64,000 nucleotides of DNA from Candidatus Ryanbacteria bacterium CG10_big_fil_rev_8_21_14_0_10_43_42 (GCA_002793915.1 PFEF01000008.1:18159-82158); one strand, 5' to 3'. Counted from the first letter of the stretch, positions 9,909-32,057 are shown. Notes: generated by a model not told the origin, from the sequence alone. Program-made: numbers and translations.

Positions 9909-10949
9909 CTAGAAAGGATTTTTAGCGCCCCGAACTTCAAAATGCACATGACATCCCGTGGACCGTCCGGTTGATCCGATCGTACCAATCGTTTGCCCCT
10001 GCACGACGTACTGTCCAATGGAAACCCAGTTTGCGGTATTGTGCGCATAAAGCGTCTGGGTGCCGTTTGCATGTGATATTACGATATAATTTCCGTACCC
10101 GCCATTCCATCCGGATGCCCGAGAGACAATTACCGTTCCGGAGGCGGATGCATAAATAGGGGAACCACACGAAAGTGCTAAATCCACACCATTAAACCCA
10201 TGTAAATCTTGTGTTTTCTTTCCACCACCTACAGGACGGATATAATAGCCGGAAGCATCTTTTAAATTGCCTATATTAATCCGAAGCTGACTTGTACCTG
10301 CCGCTATCACGCGCTCTTTTGTTACCTCTCCATCGGGAATAATAACCTCATCCCCAACAGCAAGCACCGCATCCGCCGAAAGATCATTATAGGCAAGAAT
10401 TTCATCCAGATCTCCGCTATATTTTTTCGCAATGGACTGAAGAGTATCGCCCTTTGCAACAGCATGACGAATTCCCGTTACCGGCAAAATAACCAAAACA
10501 TCTCCCGGTTTGATAAGATCCCCGCGCGTTATATTATTCGCCCAGATAATGGTATTGGTTGTTACCCCAAACATGCGCGCAATGATGGAAATATTATCGC
10601 CCTCGCGTACGGTATAAAGCGTAATACTATCGGTCCTTATTTCTTCCACATCGGCAATGCTTCCCAAAGGACCCACCACCGGAAGAAGGGTACTCGCATC
10701 TATAATGGGAAGCGATGCTCCTCCGGTAGCCGCCGCTTTTATATCCGGATTATGTGGTGCCTCCAAAAGAGGCATGGTTTGAAGAGATGTAGTTCCGTCA
10801 TAATCCGCATCCGCTTCTTGCAACACATTATTAAGCCCTAAAAGACCGCCTATAAATGAAAAAAGCCCGGCGTGTGCCTGCTCTATAGAAAACAAGGATA
10901 TGGTAAGCGCAACTACGACAAACAGGATTGCCTTTTTAAATCGGTACAA
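9909..10949 (-). CDS. LysM-domain M23-family metallopeptidase (peptidoglycan hydrolase)
   Basis: 346 aa; signal anchor, two LysM repeats (YTVREGDNISIIARMFGV; HAVAKGDTLQSIAKKYSG), C-terminal M23 motifs HxGxD...YAHN...GSTGRSTGCHVHFE. Confidence 0.85.
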   Translation of the reverse strand: MYRFKKAILFVVVALTISLFSIEQAHAGLFSFIGGLLGLNNVLQEADADYDGTTSLQTMPLLEAPHNPDIKAAATGGASLPIIDASTLLPVVGPLGSIADVEEIRTDSITLYTVREGDNISIIARMFGVTTNTIIWANNITRGDLIKPGDVLVILPVTGIRHAVAKGDTLQSIAKKYSGDLDEILAYNDLSADAVLAVGDEVIIPDGEVTKERVIAAGTSQLRINIGNLKDASGYYIRPVGGGKKTQDLHGFNGVDLALSCGSPIYASASGTVIVSRASGWNGGYGNYIVISHANGTQTLYAHNTANWVSIGQYVVQGQTIGTIGSTGRSTGCHVHFEVRGAKNPF

Positions 10950-14201: not shown

Positions 14202-14966
14202 TTACGAGACCGGAATATATCCGTCCGGTCCTCGTTTGTAAATTTTTTCCCCCGGTGTGGCCGGAGAAAGTGAAAGAGGAGAAGATCTCGCTCGGGGAGC
14301 CACGTTCGCCTGCAATGGAATCACGAACGACTCATACTTTCTACCATTAAAGACAGAAAACGCGAGTTGTTTATATTCTCCCGACGGGAAGAATATACTG
14401 CCGGATACCGTACCTCCCGGTGCAAGCGTAGCGCTTTGTATCTGAGTTTCGTGCAAGCGTGCAAGTTCCTGCTGTGGATTTCCTGTAAGAGCATGTTGCA
14501 GTCCCGCTCCAAACATACGCCCGGCATACGGCACCGATGATCCGAGCATCACAGCCCCTATTCCGAGAGAATTTAATCCTAATGAATCAACGGGTTCGCT
14601 CCACGATTTTTGCGGAGCCAGAGCGCTTGTCTGATGTCTATACAGGCCGTTAACATCAACGCCTTGTACGGATGAGATTGTGATAGGAATATTCCCTTTG
14701 TTCGTGGCGCTAAACTGAAACTCTGTCCAACGCGCACTGCCGGACACCGGCCGAACAAACACACTAAGGGAACCGTTCCTTGTTTCCACGCCTTTACCGG
14801 GTACGCCAACCTCTTTTGGCGCAAACACACCCCCGATTGCCCGTCCGGCAAACTCACTTGCTATATTGGTTGCCGTGTACTGCATTAACGCAGGGCCTGC
14901 GGCCGTGCACCCCGAAAGGGAAAGCACAACACACCACCCCAACATCCTTGAGAGGTTCACGTTCAT
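14202..14966 (-). CDS. predicted lipoprotein, unknown function
   Basis: 254 aa; signal peptide with lipobox LSGC; AGGAGGAGG SD upstream. Confidence 0.5.
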   Translation of the reverse strand: MNVNLSRMLGWCVVLSLSGCTAAGPALMQYTATNIASEFAGRAIGGVFAPKEVGVPGKGVETRNGSLSVFVRPVSGSARWTEFQFSATNKGNIPITISSVQGVDVNGLYRHQTSALAPQKSWSEPVDSLGLNSLGIGAVMLGSSVPYAGRMFGAGLQHALTGNPQQELARLHETQIQSATLAPGGTVSGSIFFPSGEYKQLAFSVFNGRKYESFVIPLQANVAPRARSSPLSLSPATPGEKIYKRGPDGYIPVS

Positions 14967-15069: not shown

Positions 15070-16131
15070 TTACCCGCACCCGCATATACCCGTCTGTGGA
15101 TCCCATATGGCATTTGGCCAGGCGCCGCACTGTAAATTAAGGCATCCGAGCGGTATGGTGCATCCCATGGAATGCGGTCCACAATCGGGAACGCTTACAC
15201 ACACAAAACCGGTACAATTAAGTCCGCAATTACAACAGCCAATCACGCTGTTAAATCCCGGCACCGTAAAAAATGGGGCATCATCCTTATAGCAATCTCC
15301 CCCCAATCCAAATGATGATCCCCCCGTTACCCATGACGCACGTGCTTCTTGTGGAATTAAAACAAAGGCGACAGCATCCAGTATATCCCGTACAAGATCA
15401 TGCGTATTTTCCGTACTTATAAGAAACTTTTGCCCGCCAAGCATCACAGAAACCGATTTAAACTCCCTTTCATAACTCTGCCGCTCCCGCGTAACATCAT
15501 CTTTAAGCGTGGTTGTAATATGATATATATACACTTCTTTCTGCTCTTCCGTAATAAAACCGCGTTCGGCGGCATATGCCACGAGTTGCCGTAAAATAAC
15601 ACTGATTTCTTCGTCCGTAGCGGGATTCGGATTAATATCCTTTTCATCAATAAACCCTTCATTCTTCATAAGAAGCTGTACATTATACAAAGAATCCCTG
15701 TACGTCGGCGGCCATAACCGGTCAAAAACAAGCTCTTCAATCTCTTCCGGAGAACGTTCTGGTGTTTTGTCGGGGGAAGAATCTGTAGTTGCAGGAATAG
15801 AAGAATGTTCCTTTTCCGGTACCTCGTCTTGATTTATGTGCGGTAATAATGTCACCACATTGTTTTTTATCGTTTCAAACACATCATATTGAGTGTTATT
15901 ATCATCGCTTTCTTTTATTGCGGAAAATAGAGGAACTTTTTCATGCAAACCGCCCGTATATTCTTTCTCCGATAATGATACATATGACGAGGAAGAATAA
16001 TCTTTACTCTCACGAGACAACTCATTGTCTTCTCCATAGCGCGTGCCTAAAAAAACCAGGGATAGTAAAACAAAAGCAAGTACTGATCCGCCGCCTAAAA
16101 AAAATATTGTTTGTTTATCTATGCCGTACAT
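15070..16131 (-). CDS. membrane-anchored protein with extremely Cys-rich C-terminal domain
   Basis: start placed at MYGIDKQ.. (16129-16131), immediately followed by TM helix; longest ORF extends to 16260 but would overlap divergent gene; last ~75 aa contain 16 Cys (CCNCGLNC..CGCG). Confidence 0.45.
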   Translation of the reverse strand: MYGIDKQTIFFLGGGSVLAFVLLSLVFLGTRYGEDNELSRESKDYSSSSYVSLSEKEYTGGLHEKVPLFSAIKESDDNNTQYDVFETIKNNVVTLLPHINQDEVPEKEHSSIPATTDSSPDKTPERSPEEIEELVFDRLWPPTYRDSLYNVQLLMKNEGFIDEKDINPNPATDEEISVILRQLVAYAAERGFITEEQKEVYIYHITTTLKDDVTRERQSYEREFKSVSVMLGGQKFLISTENTHDLVRDILDAVAFVLIPQEARASWVTGGSSFGLGGDCYKDDAPFFTVPGFNSVIGCCNCGLNCTGFVCVSVPDCGPHSMGCTIPLGCLNLQCGAWPNAIWDPQTGICGCG

Positions 16132-16254
16132 ATGTACATCATATACCGTACCATGCAAAATATATAGAGGTTCATAAGTTATCCACACGGAAAAACATAA
16201 ATTTGTCACGGGAAAAGGTACAATATATTGTATTAGCGGTAATGTCCGTGCGTT

Positions 16255-17244
16255 TTGCAATACCTTCCTAGTAAAAAATTTTTTATATTCCTTTTTACTC
16301 TCACAATACTCTTGAGTGTGGGATGGTATTTAAATTCTCCAAAAACACATCAGACAATACAGACAAACACATCATCCAAGAAAAAGGATTCCTCCACAGG
16401 CATCATAGCCAAAAAAGATACGGACGGCGACGGACTTCTTGATTGGGAGGAAACTCTCTGGGGAATGAATCCCGACAATCCCGATACTGACGGGGATGGT
16501 ATTTCTGACAATGAAGAGGTTCTAGCACAGGAACACACGCTTTCTCTTGAATCCATCGCATCCATATCACCCGCCTCCGATACGCTTTCTGACGACGAAC
16601 CGCCTTCTCTCGTTGCTCAAATTGCCCAAGATTTCGGAAAAACGTATCTCCAACAAAAATTCACCACCTCATCAATTGATACGGAGCGCATGAGTACGGA
16701 TCTTGTAACAAAACTGCAAAATACCATTGTCGAAGAATCATCCCGAAATCTTTCCTCACCCTTTAGTGAAAAAGATATTATTGTGATAAAAGAAAACTCC
16801 TCATCCGCTCTGCTTACCTATATAAATGGGCTCGGAAATGCCATACAAAGCATGCCTCATATTGAAAAAAACGGCATACTGCTGTTTACTCTCGGACTTT
16901 CCAAACAAGAAATTATCAGTGAAGATCTTTTTACTGAAGAGCTTACGGGCTACCTGACACTTATAGAGTCGCTTAAAAAAATTCCCGTACCGAAATCCAT
17001 GGCAGATACTCATATCGCTCTGATGAATAACTTCTGGCATCAGTATCAAATTATACGCAGTCTTTCGAAAGTGGACAGCGATCCGGTTCGAGCGCTTGCG
17101 GCATTCAATCGCTATCCCGAAATTGCCGAAGAATCCCTCTCTCCTCTTGGCGCTATTATAGATAGTATTGTTCAAAACGATCTCTCCTTTACCGAAGAAG
17201 ACGGCGGTCTGGTGTTTGTCAGTTATAAGGAATTACGCAAATGA
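16255..17244 (+). CDS. secreted/membrane-anchored protein with thrombospondin-type-3-like Asp-rich Ca-binding repeats
   Basis: 329 aa, TTG start per ORF track; N-terminal signal anchor; DTDGDGLLDWEE..NPDNPDTDGDGISDNEE motif pair. Confidence 0.5.
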   Translation: MQYLPSKKFFIFLFTLTILLSVGWYLNSPKTHQTIQTNTSSKKKDSSTGIIAKKDTDGDGLLDWEETLWGMNPDNPDTDGDGISDNEEVLAQEHTLSLESIASISPASDTLSDDEPPSLVAQIAQDFGKTYLQQKFTTSSIDTERMSTDLVTKLQNTIVEESSRNLSSPFSEKDIIVIKENSSSALLTYINGLGNAIQSMPHIEKNGILLFTLGLSKQEIISEDLFTEELTGYLTLIESLKKIPVPKSMADTHIALMNNFWHQYQIIRSLSKVDSDPVRALAAFNRYPEIAEESLSPLGAIIDSIVQNDLSFTEEDGGLVFVSYKELRK

Positions 17245-18788
17245 AATTTCTTTCCCTACTACGACAGTCTTTCAGATCTCACACTCTTGTTAAGGGAGGT
17301 GTTGCTCTTTTTATAGTTGGTAGTATATTCCTTCCATTCGTTCGTACGGCCGATGCCGTAGTTCCCGTACACTGCCCGACCATCTGCCAAACATGGGATG
17401 TTGCGCTTTCGGGAAAAATAGGCGCATCACCCGAAAGATGGTTTGCCACGAAAGAACATAGTTCAACCGGCCTTGCAAGCGTTACGGGGATCGTTGACGC
17501 AATAACAAACCCTTCACTCGATGCCATTCTTTGGGAAATAGCACGCGTTATCTTACGACAATTCGCTGAAAATATTATTGAATGGATTAAAACCGGCCAA
17601 GATCCGTTCTTTTTCGGCGGTACAAACGGGGGGTTATTCGTAACAAACATAGATGAGTTTGTGCTTGATGCGGCGGATAATGCGGCAGGCGTCTTTCTTT
17701 CGGAATATTTGGGAGATGCATATGATAATCTATGTTCTCCGTTTCGTCTTGATGTAGCACTTGGCCTGGGACACAGTTACGGGCGTGATTACGGCAGTTT
17801 TAAATATCAGGCACGGTGCAGTATAACCGACATTGTTGCCAACCTCGAAGATTTTTATAACGATTTTGAAAACGGCGGCTGGGAAGCATGGTTTGCAACG
17901 TCTCGCTATGAAAATAACCCCTTAGGCCTTCTTACTCTTTCCGTGGAAACTTCCATTGGCCGCGAAACGCGCGCCGCAAATGCCAACATTCTTGATTTTT
18001 CAGCCGGTCTCGGTTTTCTGGGTCTTCGCGAGTGTCCGCCGGAAAACCAGATTCCCGGCCCCACACAGGATGGAAAACCGCTTTGTAAAAATAACGGCTA
18101 CATAACAAAATCTCCCGGAAAAGCCGTAGAGGATCAATTAGCCGATGCACTTGGTCAAGATATCCGTCAGCTGGAAATAGCCGATGAAATGAACGAAATT
18201 ATTGCCGCCATTTTTGATGAACTTCTTTCCTGGGCATTGGGAGGCGCCGGCGGGGGACTCCTTGGTTACGAAAAAGGATCCGTTCCTGATTTTCCGGATC
18301 CCGGCGATACGGGAGCGCTTTCCTGTGCCCGCGCAACAGGAAAACCCAGTGGCTGTGAATGTTCATTTAATGAACAGTGCGCAAGTAAAATATGTAATGG
18401 AAGTCTGGTATGTGAGGCACCTCCAACACCGCCCGATATTCCCGGAGGAGGAACAACACAGTGCTCGGACGGTTTTGATAATGATGGCGATCGCCTTATA
18501 GATTCCGCCGATCCCGATTGTGTTGATGCAAATGACGATTCAGAAGCTTACCCTCTTCCCGAATGTAGTGATGGTCTTGATAATGACGGGGATTTACGAA
18601 TTGATTTTCCTGTTGATCCCGAATGTCCCAATGCTCTCTTCAACGACGAAACAGGAGGACCACCACCTCATTGTAGTGATGGTCTTGATAATGACGGGGA
18701 TAGCCTCATCGACTGGCCGGATGACCCGGGATGCAGAGACATATTTGATGATCGTGAAACGGATACTCCAAACCCGACTGAAAACTAA
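17241..18788 (+). CDS. secreted protein with three C-terminal CSDGxDNDGDxxID..DP.C repeats (putative Ca/metal-binding)
   Basis: 515 aa; signal anchor; start overlaps previous stop (ATGA); 29-nt exact DNA repeat tgtagtgatggtcttgataatgacgggga at 18564 and 18671. Confidence 0.55.
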   Translation: MKFLSLLRQSFRSHTLVKGGVALFIVGSIFLPFVRTADAVVPVHCPTICQTWDVALSGKIGASPERWFATKEHSSTGLASVTGIVDAITNPSLDAILWEIARVILRQFAENIIEWIKTGQDPFFFGGTNGGLFVTNIDEFVLDAADNAAGVFLSEYLGDAYDNLCSPFRLDVALGLGHSYGRDYGSFKYQARCSITDIVANLEDFYNDFENGGWEAWFATSRYENNPLGLLTLSVETSIGRETRAANANILDFSAGLGFLGLRECPPENQIPGPTQDGKPLCKNNGYITKSPGKAVEDQLADALGQDIRQLEIADEMNEIIAAIFDELLSWALGGAGGGLLGYEKGSVPDFPDPGDTGALSCARATGKPSGCECSFNEQCASKICNGSLVCEAPPTPPDIPGGGTTQCSDGFDNDGDRLIDSADPDCVDANDDSEAYPLPECSDGLDNDGDLRIDFPVDPECPNALFNDETGGPPPHCSDGLDNDGDSLIDWPDDPGCRDIFDDRETDTPNPTEN

Positions 18789-18806
18789 AACAAACAAGAT
18801 TACATA

Positions 18807-20936
18807 ATGATTTCTTTTTTGCAAAATAAAATACTCCTTTTTAGTGGCATACTCCTACTTACGCTGTTTGCGGTGTTTTCGCCGGCGGTATCGCATAGCG
18901 CGGATGCTCAATTTTATTCCGAATGCATAAATAACGTAATACCGGGAAAAATCGAATATGCTTTATGCGGCGAGGGCGCAACACTAAAAGCCGCCGCAGA
19001 CGCTTGTGCGGCAAAAGGGTGTACAGGGCTTCAATTTCAATGTCTTGGATCCTCGGCGGGATCTTGCCCCACACCTCCTGTTGATCCCACCGCCACACTC
19101 ACAAAGGCAGCCGGTGGTGCCGTCGTGCAGTACGTTCTTCCGAGTGTTATCAAGGCTCTTATCGGTATAATACAATTTCTTAATTCCGTTCTTGTCTGGG
19201 TGGTGGGAATTGTGGCACGTCTATTTGATCAAGCTGTTGCCATAGCGCTTGCCGGCTTTGGACAATTAAAATTTATTGAACTGGGCTGGACTATCGCGCG
19301 CGATGTTGCCAACATATTCTTTATTCTTATTCTTCTTGTTATTGCCATTGCCACCATCCTGCGTGTTGAAACATACGGCATAAAACAACTCCTTCCGCGC
19401 CTTGTCATTACCGCTCTTCTTATCAACTTTAGTTTGGTAATATCATTTGCCGTGGTAGATGCGTCCAATCTGTTAGCGCTTCAATTTATAGAGCCCATTT
19501 ATCCGGTATCTAATAAAATTGCTGATGTTATGAATATCAGCCAAATAACAGCGCTTAACGCGGGCACTTCACCAAGAACAGAAATTGAGTTTACCGATGC
19601 GGTTACTAACGGTTTTTACGATGTTCTTAATAAGTACAATAACTCCCCTGTAGCAAATCCAAGCGCTGCGACCGCAATGGCTCTCGGCCAAGCTCCCAAC
19701 CAGTTTGACCCTCTTATAGTAGATGGCTTGTTTCAGGTTATCATTCTTATTCTACTGCTCATTCTTATATTTGTGTTTATAGCGCTTGGCGCCCTTCTTA
19801 TCATTCGCACCATTGCTCTCATGGTTATATTTGTTTTCGCCCCTATCGGATTTATCGCCGGCATACTCCCGCAAACAAAAGGATATAGCACGGACTGGTG
19901 GCGGGCACTGTTTAACTGGTCATTCTTCTTTCCGGCATCCGCCTTCATGATGTACCTTGCCATACAATACGGAAAAGAAATAAGCGCCATCGTACGAGAT
20001 TCTCAAACGCTTAATACCGCCGCTCTATTCAGTTATGTGAGTATCGCCGCCATCCTGCTTGGCTCCATCTTGGTGGCAAAGAAAATGGGTATCTATGGAG
20101 CTGATGCCGCCATCAATATTGGCAGAAAGATACAAAAAAGTGCGCAAGGATATGCCGGTAGGGGAACTAAAAACTTAGGATTGCGAGCTACCGGGGGAGT
20201 AGCGCAAAGCGTCACGAAAGGCGTCTCAAGCATTCCAGTAATAGGCGGCGTACTAGCTAAAACTCCTGCCGCTATTGTGCGCGCAGACGAAAAGAGAAAA
20301 AGTGAAAAAGAAAAACAATACCGTGAAATTGCGAAAGGTTCCAAAACCGCCGTTCGAGCGGCACTCCAGGGAACAGCTCTTCCGGGCAATAAAGAACTTA
20401 TCCGGCGCCTTGCCGTTGAAGAAGGAAAAGCGGATGCATTAGACACCGCAGACCTTAGGCGCGATCACGCAAAATACATCACCACAGGAAATACGAAAGC
20501 TATTAAGAATATTGAAAAAGTACTTCCTGAACTTGCCGCTACCCGCGGAGCAACTCCTCAAGAGCAGGAACTAAATCTCAACCAAGCGGTATCAAACCTA
20601 ACCGTAAAAGATATTCAGGATAATCTTAGGGAAGATTCTCTTGCCAACGAAAAGGTTCAGAATGCGCTTCTTTTGGCGGCAAAATCAAATGTATTGGAAG
20701 CGGGATTGGATGAATTTGGAAAGAAATTTGGTGATGCATTGGAAAGCGCATACACTCGCTTAAAAAGCATTACACCGCCTCCCGGAACTTCTCAAGAACT
20801 GCATGCATACGATAAACTAAGCAGATCGACCGCGAAATTCTTTGTCGTAAGTCCGGGCGCTCAAATTCTTAATTCGAAAATAAGTCATGAAATTGCGTCT
20901 TCAGCTAAAACAAGAGGTCATAATTTTAATCCTTAA
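18807..20936 (+). CDS. large polytopic membrane protein, VirB6/TrbL/PrgH-like by topology and context
   Basis: 709 aa; signal peptide, Cys-rich ~90-aa ectodomain, >=6 TM helices, ~300-aa hydrophilic C-terminal domain; positioned upstream of VirB3-like and VirB4 genes. Confidence 0.5.
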   Translation: MISFLQNKILLFSGILLLTLFAVFSPAVSHSADAQFYSECINNVIPGKIEYALCGEGATLKAAADACAAKGCTGLQFQCLGSSAGSCPTPPVDPTATLTKAAGGAVVQYVLPSVIKALIGIIQFLNSVLVWVVGIVARLFDQAVAIALAGFGQLKFIELGWTIARDVANIFFILILLVIAIATILRVETYGIKQLLPRLVITALLINFSLVISFAVVDASNLLALQFIEPIYPVSNKIADVMNISQITALNAGTSPRTEIEFTDAVTNGFYDVLNKYNNSPVANPSAATAMALGQAPNQFDPLIVDGLFQVIILILLLILIFVFIALGALLIIRTIALMVIFVFAPIGFIAGILPQTKGYSTDWWRALFNWSFFFPASAFMMYLAIQYGKEISAIVRDSQTLNTAALFSYVSIAAILLGSILVAKKMGIYGADAAINIGRKIQKSAQGYAGRGTKNLGLRATGGVAQSVTKGVSSIPVIGGVLAKTPAAIVRADEKRKSEKEKQYREIAKGSKTAVRAALQGTALPGNKELIRRLAVEEGKADALDTADLRRDHAKYITTGNTKAIKNIEKVLPELAATRGATPQEQELNLNQAVSNLTVKDIQDNLREDSLANEKVQNALLLAAKSNVLEAGLDEFGKKFGDALESAYTRLKSITPPPGTSQELHAYDKLSRSTAKFFVVSPGAQILNSKISHEIASSAKTRGHNFNP

Positions 20937-20941
20937 TTTAT

Positions 20942-22141
20942 ATGGCAACACTTACACCACAAGAAGCGGATCAACGCATACAACGTCTCCCAAAGGCGCT
21001 TCGGCACGTTTTGTTTGCGGGAGCTACGGCTGACGCCGTATTTGATATTGGTACAAAATACAAACTTCTTATCGATAAAATGGGAGAACTGGCGTCCGAA
21101 ATAGGCGACTTTATGATCGGTGCCACAAAACCAAATGAATTTGTCGGTAATTTGGAACGTCGCCTTCAAATAGATAAAAGCGTTGCAAAACAAATAGCCG
21201 ACGATGTTAATAAGCAAATATTCGCCCCCGTCCGAAAAGAACTTCGTGAACTTCATGGCGTGGAAGAAAGCGATAAAGACACAAAAACGGAAGAGGTTCC
21301 CCAAAATATTGCGGAAACAACGGAACAAAGTACCGCTTCTTCCTTATTTGACGACAAACTTAATTTCGTAGAAGAAGAAGGAAAGAGTCTTTCTTTTGTA
21401 AAAAACAGCTCCATTGAAACATTAAAACGCGAACTTGATGAAGCGGTAGAAGAACCCCCTCACTTAAAAGAAAGTCATTCCTACTCACGGAATGACCCGT
21501 ACCGTGAGTCCATCACCAATGATGCATCTCCGCCTCCAAAACCATTCCCTAAATCAATAAAACCGCCGGAAGAAAAAGCCCCGCCTCCGCCGGAAGAAAA
21601 GATCACACCCGCATCTCCCATGTTCTCCCGTCTTCCCGAAACAACCCTTCAACCCAAAAAGAATATTCCTCCCGCCGCACCTGTTCCGTATACAAATGAA
21701 AAACCTTTTTCTTCCTCTCCATTTAGAAAAATACCGTCTCCGGGACCAAAGGCTGTTATCGACATAGATACCATAGCCAATGAAAAAGTTTCTTTTACCC
21801 CTATAGAAAAGAAAAATGACCCGCCTCCACCGCTCACCTCTTCCTCGCAAGAAAAAGAGCCTGTTAAAGAAATAACCCCCGTATCTCCGCCTGAAATAGT
21901 ATCTCTTGAAGAAAAATCTCCGGAAACCATACCAAAAGGAGGCGCTATCCCCACATTTCGCGGATTTTCCGCACAAAAGAAACAAGTGGAGGGCGTCCCT
22001 CGTGTACCGGATTACTTGCGTCCGGCCGCTTCTCCGCCTCCGCCAAAACCACCAACGCCACCCAAGCCAAACCCCGTAAAACAAAACCTTTCTCCTTCAA
22101 AACAAGATGAAAGCGATCCCTACCGCGAACCAATATCATAA
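20942..22141 (+). CDS. proline/glutamate-rich low-complexity protein, unknown function
   Basis: 399 aa; globular ~110-aa N-terminus then PPPKPxP / PPEEK repeats. Confidence 0.5.
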   Translation: MATLTPQEADQRIQRLPKALRHVLFAGATADAVFDIGTKYKLLIDKMGELASEIGDFMIGATKPNEFVGNLERRLQIDKSVAKQIADDVNKQIFAPVRKELRELHGVEESDKDTKTEEVPQNIAETTEQSTASSLFDDKLNFVEEEGKSLSFVKNSSIETLKRELDEAVEEPPHLKESHSYSRNDPYRESITNDASPPPKPFPKSIKPPEEKAPPPPEEKITPASPMFSRLPETTLQPKKNIPPAAPVPYTNEKPFSSSPFRKIPSPGPKAVIDIDTIANEKVSFTPIEKKNDPPPPLTSSSQEKEPVKEITPVSPPEIVSLEEKSPETIPKGGAIPTFRGFSAQKKQVEGVPRVPDYLRPAASPPPPKPPTPPKPNPVKQNLSPSKQDESDPYREPIS

Positions 22142-22173
22142 AACACACTATCCGACCCTCACCATATACTTAC

Positions 22174-22662
22174 ATGCAACAATTTCAGGTACCACAATTT
22201 ATTCAGGTGGAAGATAAAATTTTCGGTCCTCTCACCACAAAACAATTCTTCTATCTTCTGGGTGGAGGCGGGCTTTCCTTTTTATTTTGGTTTTTCTTCA
22301 ATTTCTGGATCTTCATCATACTTTCCATTCCTGTCGTAGCACTCGCACTCGCACTCGCATTTTACACGGTAAATGGACAGCCTCTTGTTTCTGTTATCGG
22401 AAACTACTTTGGCTACATAGCACGCCCCCGTCTCTTTATCTGGAAAAAGAAGGAACATTTTTCCAAAAAAGATTCTGTCATAACGGGCGGAGGCGGGGGA
22501 CTGCACATACCAAAAGTATCCCAGGATAAACTAAAGGACCTCGCATGGTCTTTAGATGTTATGGAGCATGTAAAGCGAGAACGTCCGCCAAACATTCGTG
22601 AAAATGCATTCCCCGCGAATAAAGATAAGGACAACGTCCCTCCGCGCACGACCGACGTCTAA
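22174..22662 (+). CDS. small 2-TM membrane protein, VirB3/PrgI-like by position
   Basis: 162 aa; two adjacent TM helices; gene directly precedes VirB4 N-domain ORF. Confidence 0.45.
   Translation: MQQFQVPQFIQVEDKIFGPLTTKQFFYLLGGGGLSFLFWFFFNFWIFIILSIPVVALALALAFYTVNGQPLVSVIGNYFGYIARPRLFIWKKKEHFSKKDSVITGGGGGLHIPKVSQDKLKDLAWSLDVMEHVKRERPPNIRENAFPANKDKDNVPPRTTDV
22339..22359 (+). repeat. (GCACTC)x3.5 hexanucleotide tandem repeat inside CDS (encodes ALALALA)
   Basis: direct reading of 22339-22359. Confidence 0.5.
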
Positions 22663-22679
22663 TAATATAAATCTTTTCT

Positions 22680-23330
22680 ATGGCACAATCCACACGCCCC
22701 GCACAAGACATTGTCTCCATAAAGGAAGTTCGTGACGGCGTTCTTCTTTTGAAGGACGGTTCTTTTCGTGTGGTACTTATTGCTTCCTCTATTAACTTCG
22801 CTCTTAAATCGGGTGAGGAACAGGACGCTATCGTGCTTCAGTACCAAAATTTTCTTAATTCGCTTGATTTCTCCGTTGAATTCTTTATTCAATCACGCAG
22901 ATTGAATATTGATCCATACCTTGATATTTTACGCGAACGCCTTAAACACACCTATCATGATCTTATGAAAATTCAAATTACCGAATATATCGACTTCGTA
23001 GGTTCATTTGTGGATTCCGCAAATATTATGACAAAGAATTTTTATATCGTTGTTCCCTTTACGCCGGGCGGATCTTTAAAGAAAAAAGAAGTACAAAGCG
23101 TTTTTTCCTCTTTATTTAAGGGAGGAAAGGAATCAAAGCCGATTGAAGAAGGAGCCTTTGAAGAATATAAAACGCAATTATACCAGCGTGTGGAGGTTGT
23201 CCGGCAAGGACTTATACGCACAGGCGTGCGCGTTGTACCGCTTAACACCGAAGAATTAGTGGAGCTGTTTTATGAACTTTATAATCCGGGAGAAGCGGAG
23301 AAGGGGAAGATACCGGAAACAACCGGTTAG
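22680..23330 (+). CDS. VirB4-family N-terminal domain encoded as separate ORF
   Basis: 216 aa; IVSIKEVRDGVLLLKDGSFRVVLIASSINFALKSGEEQDAIVLQYQNFLNSL resembles N-terminus of Gram-positive-type VirB4 (TraE/PrgJ/TcpF); different frame from 23398 ORF. Confidence 0.55.
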   Translation: MAQSTRPAQDIVSIKEVRDGVLLLKDGSFRVVLIASSINFALKSGEEQDAIVLQYQNFLNSLDFSVEFFIQSRRLNIDPYLDILRERLKHTYHDLMKIQITEYIDFVGSFVDSANIMTKNFYIVVPFTPGGSLKKKEVQSVFSSLFKGGKESKPIEEGAFEEYKTQLYQRVEVVRQGLIRTGVRVVPLNTEELVELFYELYNPGEAEKGKIPETTG

Positions 23331-23397
23331 GGCACCATATATTGGCTTTTTGGAAATGGTTCCAAGAAACCAATACCCGGCATCCTAATATTACACT

Positions 23398-25221
23398 ATG
23401 GGTTTATTTGATTCCCTTACGGGGAAAAATAAGAAAAAAGAGGATGAAATTCTTCCTGTATTTCCGCAGGATATTTATGCCGCCGGCATGCTTGATTTGG
23501 GAGATGCTATAGCTCCCGCGGCTCTTGAGGTGAATTCCAGCTATATTCGCCTCGGTGAAAAGTATGCCCGCACCATATTTGTATTTACCTATCCGCGATT
23601 TCTTGCGACTAGCTGGTTTGCTCCCATCATTAACCTGGATAAAATATTCGATGTCGCAATATTTGTCCATCCCGTAAACACCGTTATTATTTTGCGCGAT
23701 CTTAGAAAAAAAGTTGCCGAAGTGCAGTCGCAAATTTCCTTGCGCGAAGAAAAAGGACTGGTGCGCGATCCGGTGCTTGATACCGCATATCAAGATCTTG
23801 AAGCGCTCCGCGATAAACTGCAACAAGCCCAAGAAAAATTATTTAGCTTGGGACTCTATATAACCGTATATGCCGATACGCTCAAGGAGTTAGATGATTC
23901 GGAAACTGAAATTCGATCTCTTCTTGAAGCCCGTTTGGTATACGCAAAACCGGCATTGTTTCAACAGCAGGAGGGTCTTACGAGCACATTTCCTTTAGCA
24001 CTTGATGTGTTAAAAATAAGCACCTACATGAATTCTTCTCCTATTTCGAGTATTTTTCCTTTTGTTTCCTTTGATCTTACATCCAATCGCGGTATTTTAT
24101 ACGGCATCAATCGGCACAATAACAGTCTTATCTTATTTGATCGCTTCACCCTTGAAAACTATAATACGGTAATCTTCGCAAAAGCCGGTGCCGGAAAATC
24201 ATACATGACAAAACTTGAAATCCTTCGCTCCCTTATGTTTGACGTAGAGGTGATTGTGATTGATCCGGAAAGAGAATATGAGTATCTTGCCGAAACGGTG
24301 GGAGGACGCTTCTTTAATATATCGGTAAACTCGCCTCATCACATCAACCCCTTTGACCTTCCGTTTCCGCAGGATGATGAATCGGTGGCAGACGTACTCC
24401 GTTCAAATATCATAAACCTTGTCGGACTTTTTCGTATTATGCTGGGCGGCTTTACGCCCGAAGAAGATGCTATTTTAGACCGCGCCATTACGGAAACTTA
24501 TGCCGCAAAAGATATTACCCCCGATGCTGATCTTACAAAAGTATCTCCTCCTCTTCTTTCCGACCTACAAACCATTCTTGCTGACATGGAAGGAGGGGAT
24601 CATATTGCCGTCCGGCTAAGAAAGTATACCGAAGGAACGTGGGCCGGATTCCTCAATCACCCCACCAATATCAATATCGACAAACATATCGCCGTATTTT
24701 CACTGCGGGATATGGAAGAGGAAATTCGTCCGGTGGGTATGTATATCGTTACCCATTACATCTGGAATGTTGTGCGTTCAGAGCTTAAAAAGCGTATTTT
24801 AATCGTAGATGAGGCGTGGTGGATTATGAAAACGGAAGATGGTGCCTCTTTTTTGTACGGTCTTGCGAAGCGTGCGCGTAAATATTACCTGGGTGTTACT
24901 GCCATTACACAGGATGTTACTGATTTTATCAGCTCCACCTACGGAAAACCTCTTATAACCAACTCCTCCATTCAAGTTCTTCTCCGCCAATCACCCGCAT
25001 CTATCGATATTATCCAGCAAACATTCAACCTTACCGATGAAGAAAAGTTCCTTTTACTGGAATCAGATGTGGGGGAGGGTATTTTCTTCGCGGGATTAAA
25101 GCATGTTGCCATTAAGGTTATTGCGTCGTATACGGAAGATCAGATAATTACATCCGATCCGGCGCAATTACTGGCCATTAAAAAAGCGAAAAAAGATCTT
25201 ACGGAACAGGAGGGATTATAA
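23398..25221 (+). CDS. virB4: VirB4/TrbE/CagE-family type IV secretion ATPase (C-terminal ATPase portion)
   Basis: 607 aa; Walker A AKAGAGKSY, Walker B ILIVDEAWW, downstream motifs GVTAITQD; overall VirB4-like organisation. Confidence 0.8.
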   Translation: MGLFDSLTGKNKKKEDEILPVFPQDIYAAGMLDLGDAIAPAALEVNSSYIRLGEKYARTIFVFTYPRFLATSWFAPIINLDKIFDVAIFVHPVNTVIILRDLRKKVAEVQSQISLREEKGLVRDPVLDTAYQDLEALRDKLQQAQEKLFSLGLYITVYADTLKELDDSETEIRSLLEARLVYAKPALFQQQEGLTSTFPLALDVLKISTYMNSSPISSIFPFVSFDLTSNRGILYGINRHNNSLILFDRFTLENYNTVIFAKAGAGKSYMTKLEILRSLMFDVEVIVIDPEREYEYLAETVGGRFFNISVNSPHHINPFDLPFPQDDESVADVLRSNIINLVGLFRIMLGGFTPEEDAILDRAITETYAAKDITPDADLTKVSPPLLSDLQTILADMEGGDHIAVRLRKYTEGTWAGFLNHPTNINIDKHIAVFSLRDMEEEIRPVGMYIVTHYIWNVVRSELKKRILIVDEAWWIMKTEDGASFLYGLAKRARKYYLGVTAITQDVTDFISSTYGKPLITNSSIQVLLRQSPASIDIIQQTFNLTDEEKFLLLESDVGEGIFFAGLKHVAIKVIASYTEDQIITSDPAQLLAIKKAKKDLTEQEGL

Positions 25222-25261
25222 TAAATCTTGAACAGCTTATTTACAAGCATAATCTATTGCT

Positions 25262-25780
25262 ATGGCATCAGACGCAATAGCGCAAATATCCATAGAACAA
25301 TCTGATACCGAACAGGAAAGCCGGGCGGATCTTCTGCGTGCACGGACGGCCGATAAGCGGCGGGAAAAAAATACCGAAAAAAACCAAGAAATAAAAACCG
25401 GTACTCAAAAACCCTTTCCCATTAGTCCCGTAGAATCAGGGATTGGTATGATGATTGGCTTATGTGTGGACGCATTTGAAGCGTTGGGGGCGCTTACCGC
25501 CGTCATTCCCGTTATAGGGTGGGCTATTGCGGGTGCCAGTGCTGTGGTAGGAGCCGTATTTAGTGGTATAATGTTTTTAGGAATTGCTCTATGGTTTTTG
25601 TTTAAGGGAATTTGTCCCGACAATCCACATAATATAACATTATATACCGTTTTATTTGCCACAACGTTCAGTAATACCGTTTTTAATTGGCTTCCCGCAT
25701 GGTTTGGATTTTTCTTCTGGCTATTTTATCGTTTTTATAAGAAAAAAATTATTCCTTTTTCATTCGAATCTAAAAAATAA
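25262..25780 (+). CDS. membrane protein (3-4 TM), unknown; part of secretion-like cluster
   Basis: 172 aa; acidic N-terminus, hydrophobic helices. Confidence 0.5.
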   Translation: MASDAIAQISIEQSDTEQESRADLLRARTADKRREKNTEKNQEIKTGTQKPFPISPVESGIGMMIGLCVDAFEALGALTAVIPVIGWAIAGASAVVGAVFSGIMFLGIALWFLFKGICPDNPHNITLYTVLFATTFSNTVFNWLPAWFGFFFWLFYRFYKKKIIPFSFESKK

Positions 25781-26793
25781 TGACGTATTCTTTTAAAAAA
25801 TATAGTAGTCTTTTTGCTCTTGTAGGAAGTGGTACGCTTCTTGTTTTTAGTTTTATGACGTTCTCCGCTTATGCGCAAGACACTCTTGTTAGCCGTGATG
25901 TGCAGTTTATATTCACACCCCCTTCTCCCGGACCTCACGAAACTGTTCGGGTGGATGCACGTTCTTTCAGTTTTGATATGGAAACAGCCCTATTTACCTG
26001 GGTAGTAGATGGCGTAACGGTGGAATCGGAAGTCGGTAAAAAATCCATAACCATCACAACCGGTCCGGTGGGGTCCGAAACACGCATATCCTTAACTGCC
26101 ATACCAAAAACAGGCAGACGCGTTGAAAAAAGCATTACTATTTTCCCCGGTAGTTTGGATTTAATATGGTCAGCGAATACATACGTGCCGCCCGGATATC
26201 AAGGAAAACCCCTTCCCACCCGAGGATCTACCGTAACCGTTACGGCCGTTTCCAATATTGCGGCCGGATTTGGACTCCTTTCGGCAAACGAGCTTTTTTA
26301 CGAATGGCGGCTAAATAATATTATTCAACCCCAATATTCCGGACGGGGACGAAGTGTATTTTATTTTACTATCGGAACAAGTCCTAATATAGAACATGTT
26401 GTGTCCGTAATCGTGAAAGACGCTTCGGGTGCCACCACCCAAGAAAAACGCGTTACCATCAAACCGCAAGAGCCGCGTATATTGTTTTACGAAATAAATC
26501 CTCTGCGCGGTCCTCAATTTAATAATGCTATCACAGATCGTTTCTCGCTAACGTCGGGTCAAGAAGCCCAATTTCTTGCTGTTCCGTTCTTTATACGCAC
26601 GCCTCTATCATCATTTACTTCTTTTTGGAAAATTAACACAGATATACTTCCTCCGGATGAATCCGATCGTGATATACTGAATTATCGTTCCGATTCGGGA
26701 AGTGCGGGAAAGCAAACTATTTCTTACGAAATTGAAAATCCGTCTTATATTTTTGAACGGGCACGTAATTCATTTATCATCAATGTACAATAA
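25780..26793 (+). CDS. secreted beta-rich protein, unknown
   Basis: 337 aa; signal peptide; repeated beta-sandwich-like segments. Confidence 0.5.
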   Translation: MTYSFKKYSSLFALVGSGTLLVFSFMTFSAYAQDTLVSRDVQFIFTPPSPGPHETVRVDARSFSFDMETALFTWVVDGVTVESEVGKKSITITTGPVGSETRISLTAIPKTGRRVEKSITIFPGSLDLIWSANTYVPPGYQGKPLPTRGSTVTVTAVSNIAAGFGLLSANELFYEWRLNNIIQPQYSGRGRSVFYFTIGTSPNIEHVVSVIVKDASGATTQEKRVTIKPQEPRILFYEINPLRGPQFNNAITDRFSLTSGQEAQFLAVPFFIRTPLSSFTSFWKINTDILPPDESDRDILNYRSDSGSAGKQTISYEIENPSYIFERARNSFIINVQ

Positions 26794-26800
26794 CTTCTCT

Positions 26801-27199
26801 ATGCGTATATTCTTCTTTATTGTAATAATCCTGTTATTCTTTTCTGTCGGGTGGTTGGGGGCGGATGCCGCCACTTACAACCTGCTCGCGCCCTTGCCGG
26901 GCGGAACAGCATCTATTGATACCAGTAACGGCTTTATTACCTATATTTCTCAAATTTTCTGGTTTCTCTTAAGTGCCGCCGGCATTTTAGCTGTTCTTAT
27001 GCTTATTTTTGCCGGAGCCGAATATGTGGGCGCCGCCGGAAACCCCAGTGTTATAAATGACGCAAAAAGCCGTATTTTTAATGCTATCCTTGGCCTCCTT
27101 CTCGCACTTACGGCATATCTTATTTTAATAACGATAAACCCCAATCTGATTAATTTAAAATTAACTGTTCCTCCCATTCCGGCATCCGTAAATCCTTAG
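26801..27199 (+). CDS. small secreted protein with two hydrophobic helices, VirB2/TrbC-pilin-like topology
   Basis: 133 aa from ATG 26801 (longest ORF from 26702 overlaps upstream gene); signal peptide ..GADA then two hydrophobic helices separated by a short polar loop. Confidence 0.4.
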   Translation: MRIFFFIVIILLFFSVGWLGADAATYNLLAPLPGGTASIDTSNGFITYISQIFWFLLSAAGILAVLMLIFAGAEYVGAAGNPSVINDAKSRIFNAILGLLLALTAYLILITINPNLINLKLTVPPIPASVNP

Positions 27200-27206
27200 A
27201 TATTAT

Positions 27207-28409
27207 ATGAACAGCGACAAACGAAAAAAAATAATTATTATCGGCGCAAGCGTTCTTGGTGTCATTCTTATTGGAACAGGAATATTTTTCTTTTTCCGCG
27301 GTGACAGTCAGAATTCCGAACAGTCATTTTTTGGAAGGCTGTTCGGCGGAGATATGCCCGTAATTCCCGGCGAAGGCGACGGTATAGAAACTCTTCCCCG
27401 CCCGAACACACCTGCAGAAGGGGAGGGGCCACGCCTGAATCGTGTTTCGGAAGAACCGGTTATCGGAGCAACATTCATACCCGATACTGATAAAATAAAA
27501 TATTTTAAAAAAGCCACCGGTCACCTTTTTGAAAATACTTACGACGGATTAAACGAACGTCGCGCGTCAAATATCACCATTCCCGCCATCCAAAAAGCAC
27601 TCTGGTCTCCTTCAAAAGAGTATGCGGTACTTTCCTATTATACGGACGGGGATATACGACACTTTTATACAAAATACTCCGGCACAACAACGGCAGAATC
27701 CGGTTTTTTACCGCCGTCTCTCACATCTATAACTATGTCCGCTGAACGTGATGTTATGGCATATACACTTCCGGTAAACGGAGAGACTGCCGTCATAACG
27801 GCACGCCCGGATAATACCGCGCAAAGCACTATTCTTCGCACGTCCATCCCTGACATTATACTTGCCTTTCCCGGATCACAGACGCTAAGTATACAAACAA
27901 AGGGGTCCGCTTATGCTGAAGGTTATTTATATACCCTCACAACGCCAAACGGAAATCTCGTTAACGTATTGGGCGAAATATACGGACTTTCATCGCTTTG
28001 GTCCCCGGATATAAATACCGTTCTCTATTTTTCAACAAACCAAAACGGCAATAGCCCGTCACTAAATCTTTATTCAAAAAATACCGGAGTGGTACGCACC
28101 CTTTCTATGACAACACTTCCGGAAAAATGCGTGTGGTCATCACGGGAAGAGGAACATATCCTTTATTGTGGTATTCCCGATAAACTCCCCCGCACGACAT
28201 TACCTGATGCGTGGTGGCAGGGGACCGTATCATTTTCCGATTCCATTTGGCGCATCAACCTGGATACTAATGAACAAATAAAACTTATAGATACAAGCGA
28301 GTTGAACGTAGATGCTGTGCATCTTTTCACTTCAGGGGATGCTTCTCATCTCTTTTTCACCAATAAAAAAGACGGCAGCTTATGGAGCTACCGCCTTACT
28401 GGTCTCTAA
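27207..28409 (+). CDS. membrane-anchored extracytoplasmic protein, possibly beta-propeller
   Basis: 400 aa; N-terminal TM anchor; Gly/Pro-rich linker; repeated W/Y-containing beta segments. Confidence 0.5.
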   Translation: MNSDKRKKIIIIGASVLGVILIGTGIFFFFRGDSQNSEQSFFGRLFGGDMPVIPGEGDGIETLPRPNTPAEGEGPRLNRVSEEPVIGATFIPDTDKIKYFKKATGHLFENTYDGLNERRASNITIPAIQKALWSPSKEYAVLSYYTDGDIRHFYTKYSGTTTAESGFLPPSLTSITMSAERDVMAYTLPVNGETAVITARPDNTAQSTILRTSIPDIILAFPGSQTLSIQTKGSAYAEGYLYTLTTPNGNLVNVLGEIYGLSSLWSPDINTVLYFSTNQNGNSPSLNLYSKNTGVVRTLSMTTLPEKCVWSSREEEHILYCGIPDKLPRTTLPDAWWQGTVSFSDSIWRINLDTNEQIKLIDTSELNVDAVHLFTSGDASHLFFTNKKDGSLWSYRLTGL

Positions 28410-30680: not shown

Positions 30681-32057
30681 ATGACAAACGAGGAATTATG
30701 GCAGGCAGTTCTCGGGGAAGTTGAGCTCGCTATCTCACGCGCTAACTTCATAACGTGGTTTAAACACACATCTATTGCACAAAATGAACATAATGGCATC
30801 GTAGTACATGTACCAAATGCCTTTACGAAGGAATGGTTGGAAAATAAGTATCATAAGCTTATTATGCGGGCTCTTAGAAGTAATAATCCCGACGTACGCA
30901 GTATTGAATACGTTATCTCATCCTCTCCACCGCCCATATATACTCTCGACACACCATCACGGCCGCAAGCGGTCGTTATTGAAACGACCGGACAAGAAGA
31001 ACAGCTTGATTTTCAGGACTTTAGCGTTGACAAAGAAACAAATCTTAACCCTCGTTATACTTTTGATACGTTTGTCGTTGGGGGGTTTAATGAACTTGCT
31101 CATGCGGCGGCAATGTCTGTTGTAAAAAACATAGCGTCCCTCTATAATCCCTTGTTTATTTATGGTGGTGTGGGTCTTGGAAAAACCCATCTTTTGCAAT
31201 CCATCGGGAATGCGGTTAAAAAAGAAAATCCGTCTCTTTCCGTGCATTATGCAACATCAGAAAAATTCACCAACGATCTTATTACCGCCATACAAAACAA
31301 CGAACCCCAACGATTTAAAGACCGTTACCGTAAATTCGACGTTCTTATTATCGATGATATTCAGTTCATTGCCGGAAAGGTGCGTACCCAGGAAGAGTTT
31401 TTTCATACATTCAATGCATTGTATGAAAACAATAAGCAGGTTATTTTTTCATCCGACCGACCGCCAAAATCAATCCCCGATCTGGAAGAACGCCTTCGTT
31501 CTCGCTTTGAAGCCGGTCTTATTGCTGATGTATCCCAGCCCGACTACGAGACACGCCTTGCTATTACACGATCAAAAGCCGCCGCACGCAACCTTTCCGT
31601 TCCGCCTGAAACCCTTGAATATATAGCCTCCGCCGTCGAAAAAAACATCCGTGAACTTGAAGGAGCGCTTAATATAGTCGTTGCACGAAGTAAAGTACTA
31701 GGACGCCCGCTTACTCCCGAAGAAACAAAGGAAATCCTTCTTCAAATAATTAATAAGCCGAAAAAAGTCATTACCGCGGCGCGAATCATTAAGGAAGTTT
31801 GTCAGTTATATGATATTCAGGAACGCCACTTATTTGAACGAAGCCGTAGGCGTGAAATTGTACGTCCCCGTCAGATAGCCATGTATCTTCTACGTCAAGA
31901 TTTTGGAGGATCCTTTCCGTATATCGGACAAAAATTTGGCGGCCGTGACCATACGACAGCTATTCATGCCTATGAGAAGATTTTACGCGACATGAAGACC
32001 GATACAAAATTGTCCGATGAAATAAATATGCTTCGCGATCAAATCTATGAAACGTAA
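30681..32057 (+). CDS. dnaA: chromosomal replication initiator protein DnaA
   Basis: 458 aa; Walker A GGVGLGKTHL, DnaA signature, C-terminal HTH (GGRDHTTAIHA). Confidence 0.95.
   Translation: MTNEELWQAVLGEVELAISRANFITWFKHTSIAQNEHNGIVVHVPNAFTKEWLENKYHKLIMRALRSNNPDVRSIEYVISSSPPPIYTLDTPSRPQAVVIETTGQEEQLDFQDFSVDKETNLNPRYTFDTFVVGGFNELAHAAAMSVVKNIASLYNPLFIYGGVGLGKTHLLQSIGNAVKKENPSLSVHYATSEKFTNDLITAIQNNEPQRFKDRYRKFDVLIIDDIQFIAGKVRTQEEFFHTFNALYENNKQVIFSSDRPPKSIPDLEERLRSRFEAGLIADVSQPDYETRLAITRSKAAARNLSVPPETLEYIASAVEKNIRELEGALNIVVARSKVLGRPLTPEETKEILLQIINKPKKVITAARIIKEVCQLYDIQERHLFERSRRREIVRPRQIAMYLLRQDFGGSFPYIGQKFGGRDHTTAIHAYEKILRDMKTDTKLSDEINMLRDQIYET

Follow-up and report, generated by a model that had tools for sequence, protein, structure and literature searches.

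The DNA analysed here, a 64,000-nucleotide (nt) stretch from Candidatus Ryanbacteria bacterium CG10_big_fil_rev_8_21_14_0_10_43_42 (GCA_002793915.1 PFEF01000008.1:18159-82158; hereafter the window), contains at positions 16255-28409 a cluster of genes whose products resemble components of a type IV secretion system (T4SS). A mechanical listing of open reading frames (ORFs) yields 11 plus-strand genes, co-directional and uninterrupted, with intergenic gaps of -4 to +67 nt and with ORF starts at 16255, 17241, 18807, 20942, 22174, 22680, 23398, 25262, 25780, 26702 (probable true start, ATG 26801), and 27207. The genes, whose packing resembles that of an operon, encode a VirB6/TrbL-like protein, a PrgI/VirB3-like protein, a TrsD-like protein, a VirB4 core, a VirB2-like pilin, and six partner proteins, designated A, B, D, H, I, and K. 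A preliminary description of this locus had counted twelve genes and had placed them in a block of secreted repeat proteins; we count eleven, and the flanks are mainly housekeeping genes (uvrD and ksgA on one side; jag, yidC, rnpA, dnaA, and dnaN on the other).

The ATPase core is encoded by 23398-25221. Its product scores 350 bits on the NCBIfam model NF045971, "VirB4-like conjugal transfer ATPase, CD1110 family" (cut-off 325), covering positions 185-733 of the 752 positions of the conju_CD1110 model, and the next-best NCBIfam matches are other VirB4/TraC/TrbE models. Pfam assigns P-loop_TraG, AAA_10, and DUF87, together with weak CagE_TrbE_VirB and TraC_F_IV matches, and the best match in the PDB is the C-terminal domain of Thermoanaerobacter VirB4 (4AG5, E 5.7e-42), followed by TrwK. 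The Walker A motif AKAGAGKS (residues 262-268) and the Walker B motif ILIVDEAWW (residues 471-472) are invariant across 20 homologues. The protein is 100% identical to the "conjugal transfer protein TraC" of Candidatus Ryanbacteria bacterium CG10_big_fil_rev_8_21_14, and the 120 VirB4 homologues among the matches listed are all at least 71% identical, those with a named source being without exception from Parcubacteria/Patescibacteria or unclassified. Similarity to CedB and CedD is weak (E 2e-9 and 1e-4, respectively) and falls far under the NCBIfam cut-off. Placement by similarity supports an affinity with VirB4 proteins of the monoderm CD1110/MPF_FATA type and, within these, with the Patescibacteria clade. 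We rejected an FtsK/HerA-type ATPase, a grouping with FtsK or other P-loop ATPases being an alternative that the preliminary description had named: VirB4 models match the product, and no FtsK or VirD4 family match was obtained with Pfam or NCBIfam.

The N-terminal domain of VirB4 is present as a separate, TrsD-like ORF, 22680-23330, located directly upstream of the core. Its NCBIfam matches, all below cut-off, are to conju_CD1110 (positions 2-74), VirB4_plasma (positions 106-251), and TrsD (positions 16-143). When 1.84 billion representative proteins were scanned in full with HMMER, this ORF proved to have 2149 relatives, of which 150 were listed; among those 150, almost all are stand-alone proteins of ~160-480 amino acids (aa), and one is a 797-aa protein (P0485). 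P0485 residues 1-214 align with the TrsD-like ORF (39% identity, E 4e-47), and residues 225-795 align with residues 29-605 of the window VirB4 (56% identity). Because both ORFs are collinear with this single-chain VirB4, we interpret the window ATPase as split across two ORFs. The split is not a local frameshift, since a separate TrsD-like ORF is present in all 64 of the related loci in which it could be scored (see below). P0485, as a single-chain fusion of a TrsD-like domain and a VirB4 core, might itself be an artefact of gene calling or assembly.

The remaining T4SS-type subunits are predicted membrane proteins. The 18807-20936 product scores 27.9 bits on Pfam TrbL/VirB6 (gathering cut-off 25.9), and hydropathy predicts a polytopic protein with a signal-like N-terminus, a ~75-aa ectodomain containing 6 Cys, ~7 transmembrane (TM) segments, and a ~280-aa hydrophilic C-terminal extension. 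The small membrane protein encoded by 22174-22662 matches Pfam PrgI, the VirB3 equivalent, above cut-off (E 1.3e-10). The pilin gene, present in one copy in the window, matches Pfam PF18895 (T4SS_pilin) above cut-off (E 7e-7), and its product has a predicted signal peptide and two hydrophobic helices. The mechanical ORF begins at GTG 26702, and ATG 26801 comes after the stop of the upstream gene; ATG 26801 is the likely start, giving a gene at 26801-27199 and a protein of 132 aa. The pilin-like character noted in the preliminary description stands. Gene H (25262-25780), described there as a 3-4-TM protein, encodes a small membrane protein in which two hydrophobic TM-like segments score and a third or fourth is possible by eye.

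Comparison with related genomes reveals that the cluster is conserved as a unit. A scan of one genome per GTDB species yielded 577 confirmed VirB4 relatives, and the comparison uses the 80 best of these loci, each with flanks no longer than 10 kb; these derive from Giovannoni-, Kaiser-, Taylor-, Zambryski-, Terry-, Niyogi-, and Vogelbacteria and from other Paceibacterota. Presence was scored with tblastn and then with iterative profile searches on the ORFs of the loci, counting only loci that reach the expected position. On this basis, PrgI (63/63), TrsD (64/64), gene I (61/61), and gene K (59/59) are present in every scorable locus; VirB6 (53/54), gene D (61/62), and the pilin (58/60) are present in nearly all; and gene B (48/52) and gene A (47/51) are present in most. 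Across the 80 loci, homologous genes have the strand and order seen in the window at almost equal offsets, and the flanking ksgA, uvrD, yidC, dnaA, and dnaN genes are likewise collinear. Gene H has no sequence homologues in the related loci by tblastn or iterative searches with hidden Markov models, and its equivalents are positional: an ORF occupies the slot in 46 of 74 loci, and 37 of these 46 ORFs have at least two TM-like segments. A lack of co-conservation, which the preliminary description had said would count against it, is therefore not what the loci display: the neighbours scored by homology recur, in the same order, in 47/51 to 64/64 loci.

The ATPase is the most conserved of the proteins compared. 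Median identity to the window protein is 68.6% for VirB4, 52.9% for TrsD, 47.6% for DnaA (30681-32057 in the window), 42.6% for PrgI, 41.1% for KsgA, 38.7% for YidC, 32.5% for DnaN, and ~25-36% for the extracellular partners. Choosing the loci by their VirB4 matches raises VirB4 identity somewhat, but the gap between VirB4 and DnaA is nonetheless large and speaks for very strong purifying selection acting on the ATPase. TrsD is likewise strongly constrained. The cluster is inherited vertically and collinearly across Paceibacteria and is fixed beside the origin of replication (oriC).

Four of the conserved partners are predicted to be exposed outside the membrane. Gene A (16255-17244) encodes a predicted bitopic membrane protein with a TM segment at residues 9-27, a thrombospondin-type-3 (TSP3) Ca-binding repeat (Pfam TSP3_bac, E 8e-7), and a C-terminal domain; TSP3 repeats are present in 8 of 25 orthologues and are the only features returned by a Pfam scan of the orthologues, and a PDB profile search yields no relative. 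Gene B (17241-18788) encodes a predicted secreted protein with a signal-like N-terminus, a conserved, mostly helical N-terminal domain (residues ~40-335), and, at the C-terminus, three acidic double-disulfide repeats (NCBIfam NF033662, three copies, E 8e-20). In gene B orthologues, the C-terminal module is swapped for F5/8 type C domains or for CHB_HEX_C (chitobiase-C)/Fn3_assoc domains, a pattern expected for a protein that binds surfaces and adapts as its targets differ, making B a candidate adhesin. An AlphaFold model of B, built from a 25-sequence alignment, is helical and too poor for a fold search (predicted local distance difference test score, pLDDT, 51.5), and a PDB profile search gives nothing significant. 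The acidic double-disulfide repeat also occurs in hundreds of unrelated secreted proteins, for example in Myxococcota.

Gene I (25780-26793) has a signal-like N-terminus and a weak PDB profile match to the Ig-like protein Hoc (E 1e-3), and its orthologues have weak matches to BiPBP_C, Cadherin-like, Ig_3, PKD, and Big_2; the product is probably a secreted, beta-rich protein with tandem Ig-like domains. Gene K (27207-28409) is modelled by AlphaFold with high confidence (pLDDT 89.7) as a membrane-anchored protein with a TM helix at residues 4-31, a disordered linker, and a seven-bladed beta-propeller at residues 77-396; a PDB profile search with K gives only a weak TolB match.

Gene D (20942-22141), located between virB6 and prgI, encodes a predicted cytoplasmic protein that has neither TM segment nor signal peptide and that is 15% proline. 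Its orthologues comprise a conserved ~110-aa N-terminal domain, a Pro-rich linker of hypervariable length, and a C-terminal DPYRE motif, the linker setting a total length that ranges from 103 to 599 aa. The pattern D-P-Y-x-E, usually DPYRE, is found near the C-terminus of 61 of 65 orthologues, and 58 of the 61 have it 2-3 residues from the chain end; among background ORFs it occurs in 3 of 2210. Gene D matches no Pfam or NCBIfam family, a Pfam scan of its orthologues is empty, and a literature search on the motif returned nothing relevant. The window copy also carries an internal NDPYRE. The C-terminal DPYRE is a sharply defined short motif and a possible handle for interaction or secretion assays. 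Together, these assignments agree with the preliminary description in its calls of a VirB4-family ATPase with the Walker motifs given above, a separate VirB4 N-domain ORF, a VirB3/PrgI-like protein, a VirB6-like polytopic protein with a Cys-rich ectodomain, a Pro-rich protein, a secreted beta-rich protein, and a membrane-anchored beta-propeller protein.

The neighbourhood of the cluster is that of the chromosomal origin. Upstream lie pnp, comM, an M23/LysM peptidase gene, uvrD/pcrA, and ksgA; downstream lie jag/khpB, yidC, and rnpA on the minus strand, followed by dnaA and dnaN. The housekeeping order (jag-yidC-rnpA-dnaA-dnaN) and a minimum of the cumulative GC skew of the window at ~31 kb indicate that the cluster abuts oriC on the chromosome. 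The GC content of the cluster (0.42-0.465) equals that of its flanks. Between ksgA and the cluster there are only two ORFs, 15070-16260(-) and 14202-14966(-), which have no Pfam match and which have 1 and 0 matches in the 80 related loci; because they are missing from nearly all of these loci, we regard them as lineage-specific insertions into a conserved neighbourhood. The product of one is a membrane protein whose C-terminal tail is rich in Cys (CCNCGLNCTGFVCVSVPDCGPHSMGC), and that of the other has a lipoprotein-like N-terminus.

Further features of the flanks are as follows. A ComM/Mg-chelatase-like protein, 8302-9825(+), and an M23 peptidase with two LysM domains, 9909-10949(-), are encoded 12-15 kb upstream of virB4. 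A 298-aa tyrosine recombinase, 2320-3216(-), with Phage_integrase and SAM-like N-terminal domains, is encoded 13 kb off the cluster and looks like XerC/D, not like a mobile-element integrase. A PilB-type assembly ATPase with T2SSE and MshEN domains, a type IV pilus component, is encoded at 43849-45522(-), ~15 kb downstream of the cluster, and the adjoining ORFs 45605-46519 and 46621-47388 have no Pfam match. A terminator-like hairpin with a 12-bp stem is present on the minus strand at 28369-28397(-), within the 3' end of gene K and just beyond the convergent end of jag; it plausibly terminates transcription of the rnpA-yidC-jag operon. Consensus scans do not define operon boundaries: 28 promoter-like sites were found against 27.8 expected, which is chance level, and 25 terminator-like sites were found against 16.5 expected (standard deviation 3.8), which is somewhat above chance.

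We scanned ~50 large ORFs across the 64 kb, most of those of at least 150 aa, and found no relaxase, no VirD4/TcpA coupling protein, and no VirB11 among them, in agreement with the preliminary description; the PilB-type protein is the only other secretion-type ATPase among the ORFs scanned.

Systems of this kind have been described. Wang et al. (2023) reported that the T4SS of the Saccharibacterium Southlakia epibionticum (SEML1_0005-0019) resembles Gram-positive conjugation systems, has pilins, has no coupling protein or relaxase, lies next to dnaA/dnaN/recF, and, by transposon sequencing, is essential for growth as an epibiont (PMC10633639). Its gene order is VirB6, NTF2-like protein, VirB6-like protein, PrgI, (TrsD-like protein), VirB4, large protein, lysozymes, and PEGA/Ig exported protein, and it includes six pilins (PMC10633639). 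Quinonero-Coronel et al. (2025), surveying 3,035 Patescibacteria genomes, found a monophyletic VirB4 clade nested in MPF_FATA, with TrsD as the commonest virB4 partner; with VirB3/PrgI, VirB6, and PF18895/VirB2 pilins near virB4; with almost no relaxases and with type IV coupling proteins (T4CPs) rarely adjacent; and, in Paceibacteria, with virB4 close to dnaA, dnaN, rnpA, ksgA, and rpmH (PMC12102498). A 2025 review of T4SSs counts the Patescibacteria systems as established newcomers (PMC12857230). The system is therefore already known, and the addition made here is its Paceibacteria-specific partners, A, B, D, I, and K. The statement in the preliminary description that the apparatus is essentially undescribed was too strong for the TrsD/VirB3/VirB6/VirB2 system, published in 2023-2025, and holds for the six partners, five of which are conserved and one of which, H, is positional only.

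Taken together, the results make it very probable that the cluster is a chromosomal, non-conjugative Patescibacteria T4SS in its Paceibacteria form, and the chromosomal, non-conjugative machine of an ultra-small episymbiotic bacterium that the preliminary description proposed fits both the Candidatus Ryanbacteria source and the published view (PMC10633639; PMC12102498). The machine most likely mediates contact-dependent exchange with a host cell, in the form of either protein export or import of host macromolecules. By analogy with established T4SS biology, PrgI/VirB3 and VirB6 would form a membrane platform on which a VirB4 hexamer would dock, with the TrsD-like protein providing the N-terminal domain in trans; VirB4 would pull Sec-inserted pilin from the membrane and drive its polymerisation into a short pilus or conduit crossing the monoderm wall. 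Domain content suggests that K, I, and A may form a wall-spanning or extracellular scaffold, that B may touch the host surface through its exchangeable binding modules, and that D may dock on the ATPase via its C-terminal DPYRE peptide, either as an adaptor or as a substrate.

Several points weigh against this reading. The absence of a T4CP and a relaxase pertains to the 64-kb window, and either could lie elsewhere in the genome; VirD4-like genes are common in Patescibacteria genomes but far from virB4 (PMC12102498). Searches of the cluster proteins with Pfam, NCBIfam, and PDB profiles gave no VirB8-like (NTF2-fold) match, K being a propeller and not an NTF2 fold; in the 2025 survey, VirB8 is almost confined to class ABY1 (PMC12102498). 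Inside the cluster there is no VirB1-like hydrolase, and the M23/LysM protein is ~12 kb upstream of virB4; for Paceibacteria, the 2025 survey includes M23/LysM proteins in its virB4-linked, VirB1-like candidates (PMC12102498). The function of the Saccharibacteria T4SS was called "completely unknown" in a 2024 perspective, which offered effector delivery or nucleic-acid import as ideas (PMC11665869). The roles proposed for A, B, D, H, I, and K are suggested by domain content and position, and the model of B is unreliable. We know of no experiment on any Paceibacteria T4SS.

For the direction of transport, we consider it possible, at a probability clearly short of even, that the machine exports protein effectors or kills its host, injecting proteins into the host bacterium for nutrient release. 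The cytoplasmic product of gene D ends in an invariant motif, and many T4SS substrates, namely those of VirB/D4 systems, carry signals in their C-terminal tails; yet DPYRE is unlike the known, positively charged T4SS signals. Export is the speculation favoured for Saccharibacteria (PMC10633639; PMC11665869), and effector systems that have no T4CP exist, for example Ptl and Brucella VirB (PMC12102498); nevertheless, the window ORFs scanned include no T4CP to recruit substrates, and Pfam and NCBIfam recognise no effector/immunity pairs or toxin domains in or beside the cluster.

Import of host or environmental DNA or of nucleotides through the T4SS core and pilin, by a machine like Helicobacter ComB or archaeal Ced that feeds a cell unable to make nucleotides, appears unlikely, and more so than export. 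A set of VirB2, VirB3, VirB4, and VirB6 subunits with neither T4CP nor relaxase parallels ComB, as established for that system, VirB4 has the weak, sub-cut-off similarity to CedB/CedD described above, and the idea has been raised in print (PMC11665869). However, Pfam and NCBIfam reveal neither a DNA-binding nor a nuclease domain in the cluster, and competence of S. epibionticum needs ComEC and a type IV pilus, deletion of comEC being viable and the T4SS being essential (PMC12857230). The comEC result rules out a role of the T4SS via ComEC-dependent transformation but does not extend to ComEC-independent nutritional import. The remainder of the weight, beyond that given to export and to import, falls on adhesion, conduit functions, or combinations.

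A decayed or domesticated integrative conjugative element that came to lie near the origin by chance, for which the closeness of VirB4 to conjugative monoderm families (CD1110/CTn2 and mycoplasma integrative conjugative elements) and the tyrosine recombinase gene at 2320-3216(-) could be cited, is exceedingly improbable, and we rejected it as essentially excluded by the fixed collinear site (the same order, from ksgA to jag-yidC-rnpA-dnaA, across Ryanbacteria and the Giovannoni- to Vogelbacteria lineages named above), a GC content equal to that of the flanks, a VirB4 more conserved than DnaA, the absence of a relaxase and T4CP among the window ORFs scanned and of an oriT-type context, and the position of the XerC/D-looking recombinase 13 kb off, beyond pnp, comM, and uvrD.

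Within the interpretation as a non-conjugative Paceibacteria T4SS, a further proposal can be made, which we regard as doubtful: the partners could form a conserved accessory module whose extracellular parts (K, I, A, and B, the last with host-specific exchangeable binding domains) could replace the missing VirB8, VirB1, and VirB5 functions, and whose cytoplasmic part, D, docking on the split VirB4 through its DPYRE peptide, could replace the coupling protein. If so, the cluster would represent a structurally new kind of monoderm, pilus-bearing T4SS, and selection on the T4SS would be stronger than on DnaA because the cell would depend on the T4SS as its lifeline to the host.

Few envelope machines are common to most Patescibacteria; the T4SS is among them, and it is essential in the single species tested. 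The present locus adds no new kind of system; it provides a clean Paceibacteria reference locus and a list of partners co-inherited with virB4. The partner set, together with conservation of VirB4 above that of DnaA, offers leads on the function of the machine and leaves its classification unchanged.

The relationships to known systems are as follows. With Helicobacter pylori ComB, the cluster shares a chromosomal T4SS core with VirB2-, VirB3-, VirB4-, and VirB6-like subunits and with neither relaxase nor coupling protein; ComB differs in being a diderm system with VirB7-10 homologues and in having a VirB4 of the MPF_T lineage. With the conjugative MPF_FATA systems of monoderms (pCF10 Prg/Pcf, pIP501 Tra, pGO1 Trs, and C. 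difficile CTn2), it shares the VirB4 family, a PrgI-type VirB3, a VirB6-like protein, a TrsD-type separate N-domain protein as in pGO1, and the absence of a VirB7/9/10 outer-membrane core. In contrast to those systems, the Ryanbacteria cluster has, in the 64-kb window, no relaxase, T4CP, oriT/mobile-element context, or PrgB-type adhesin; it has a VirB2-like pilin, which Gram-positive conjugation systems lack; and it occupies a fixed, vertically inherited chromosomal site. Because no relaxase, T4CP, or mobile context is present in the window, and because a pilin is present, we place the cluster outside the conjugative MPF_FATA class.

The closest resemblance is to the T4SSs of the Patescibacteria clade. 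In particular, the cluster shares with them an MPF_FATA-affine VirB4 with a TrsD-like ORF directly upstream; the order VirB6, (unknown gene), PrgI, TrsD, VirB4, and secreted proteins; a PF18895 pilin in the cluster and no relaxase or T4CP nearby; and a chromosomal position beside dnaA/dnaN with ksgA and rnpA near. Within that clade, VirB6-like genes number two in the Saccharibacteria cluster, which also encodes an NTF2-like (VirB8-like) protein, a triple-lysozyme protein, and a six-pilin array, whereas the Ryanbacteria/Paceibacteria cluster has one VirB6, one pilin, and no recognisable hydrolase or NTF2 protein, and has a conserved set of its own, comprising K (propeller), I (Ig-like), A (TSP3), B (modular, secreted), and D (DPYRE).

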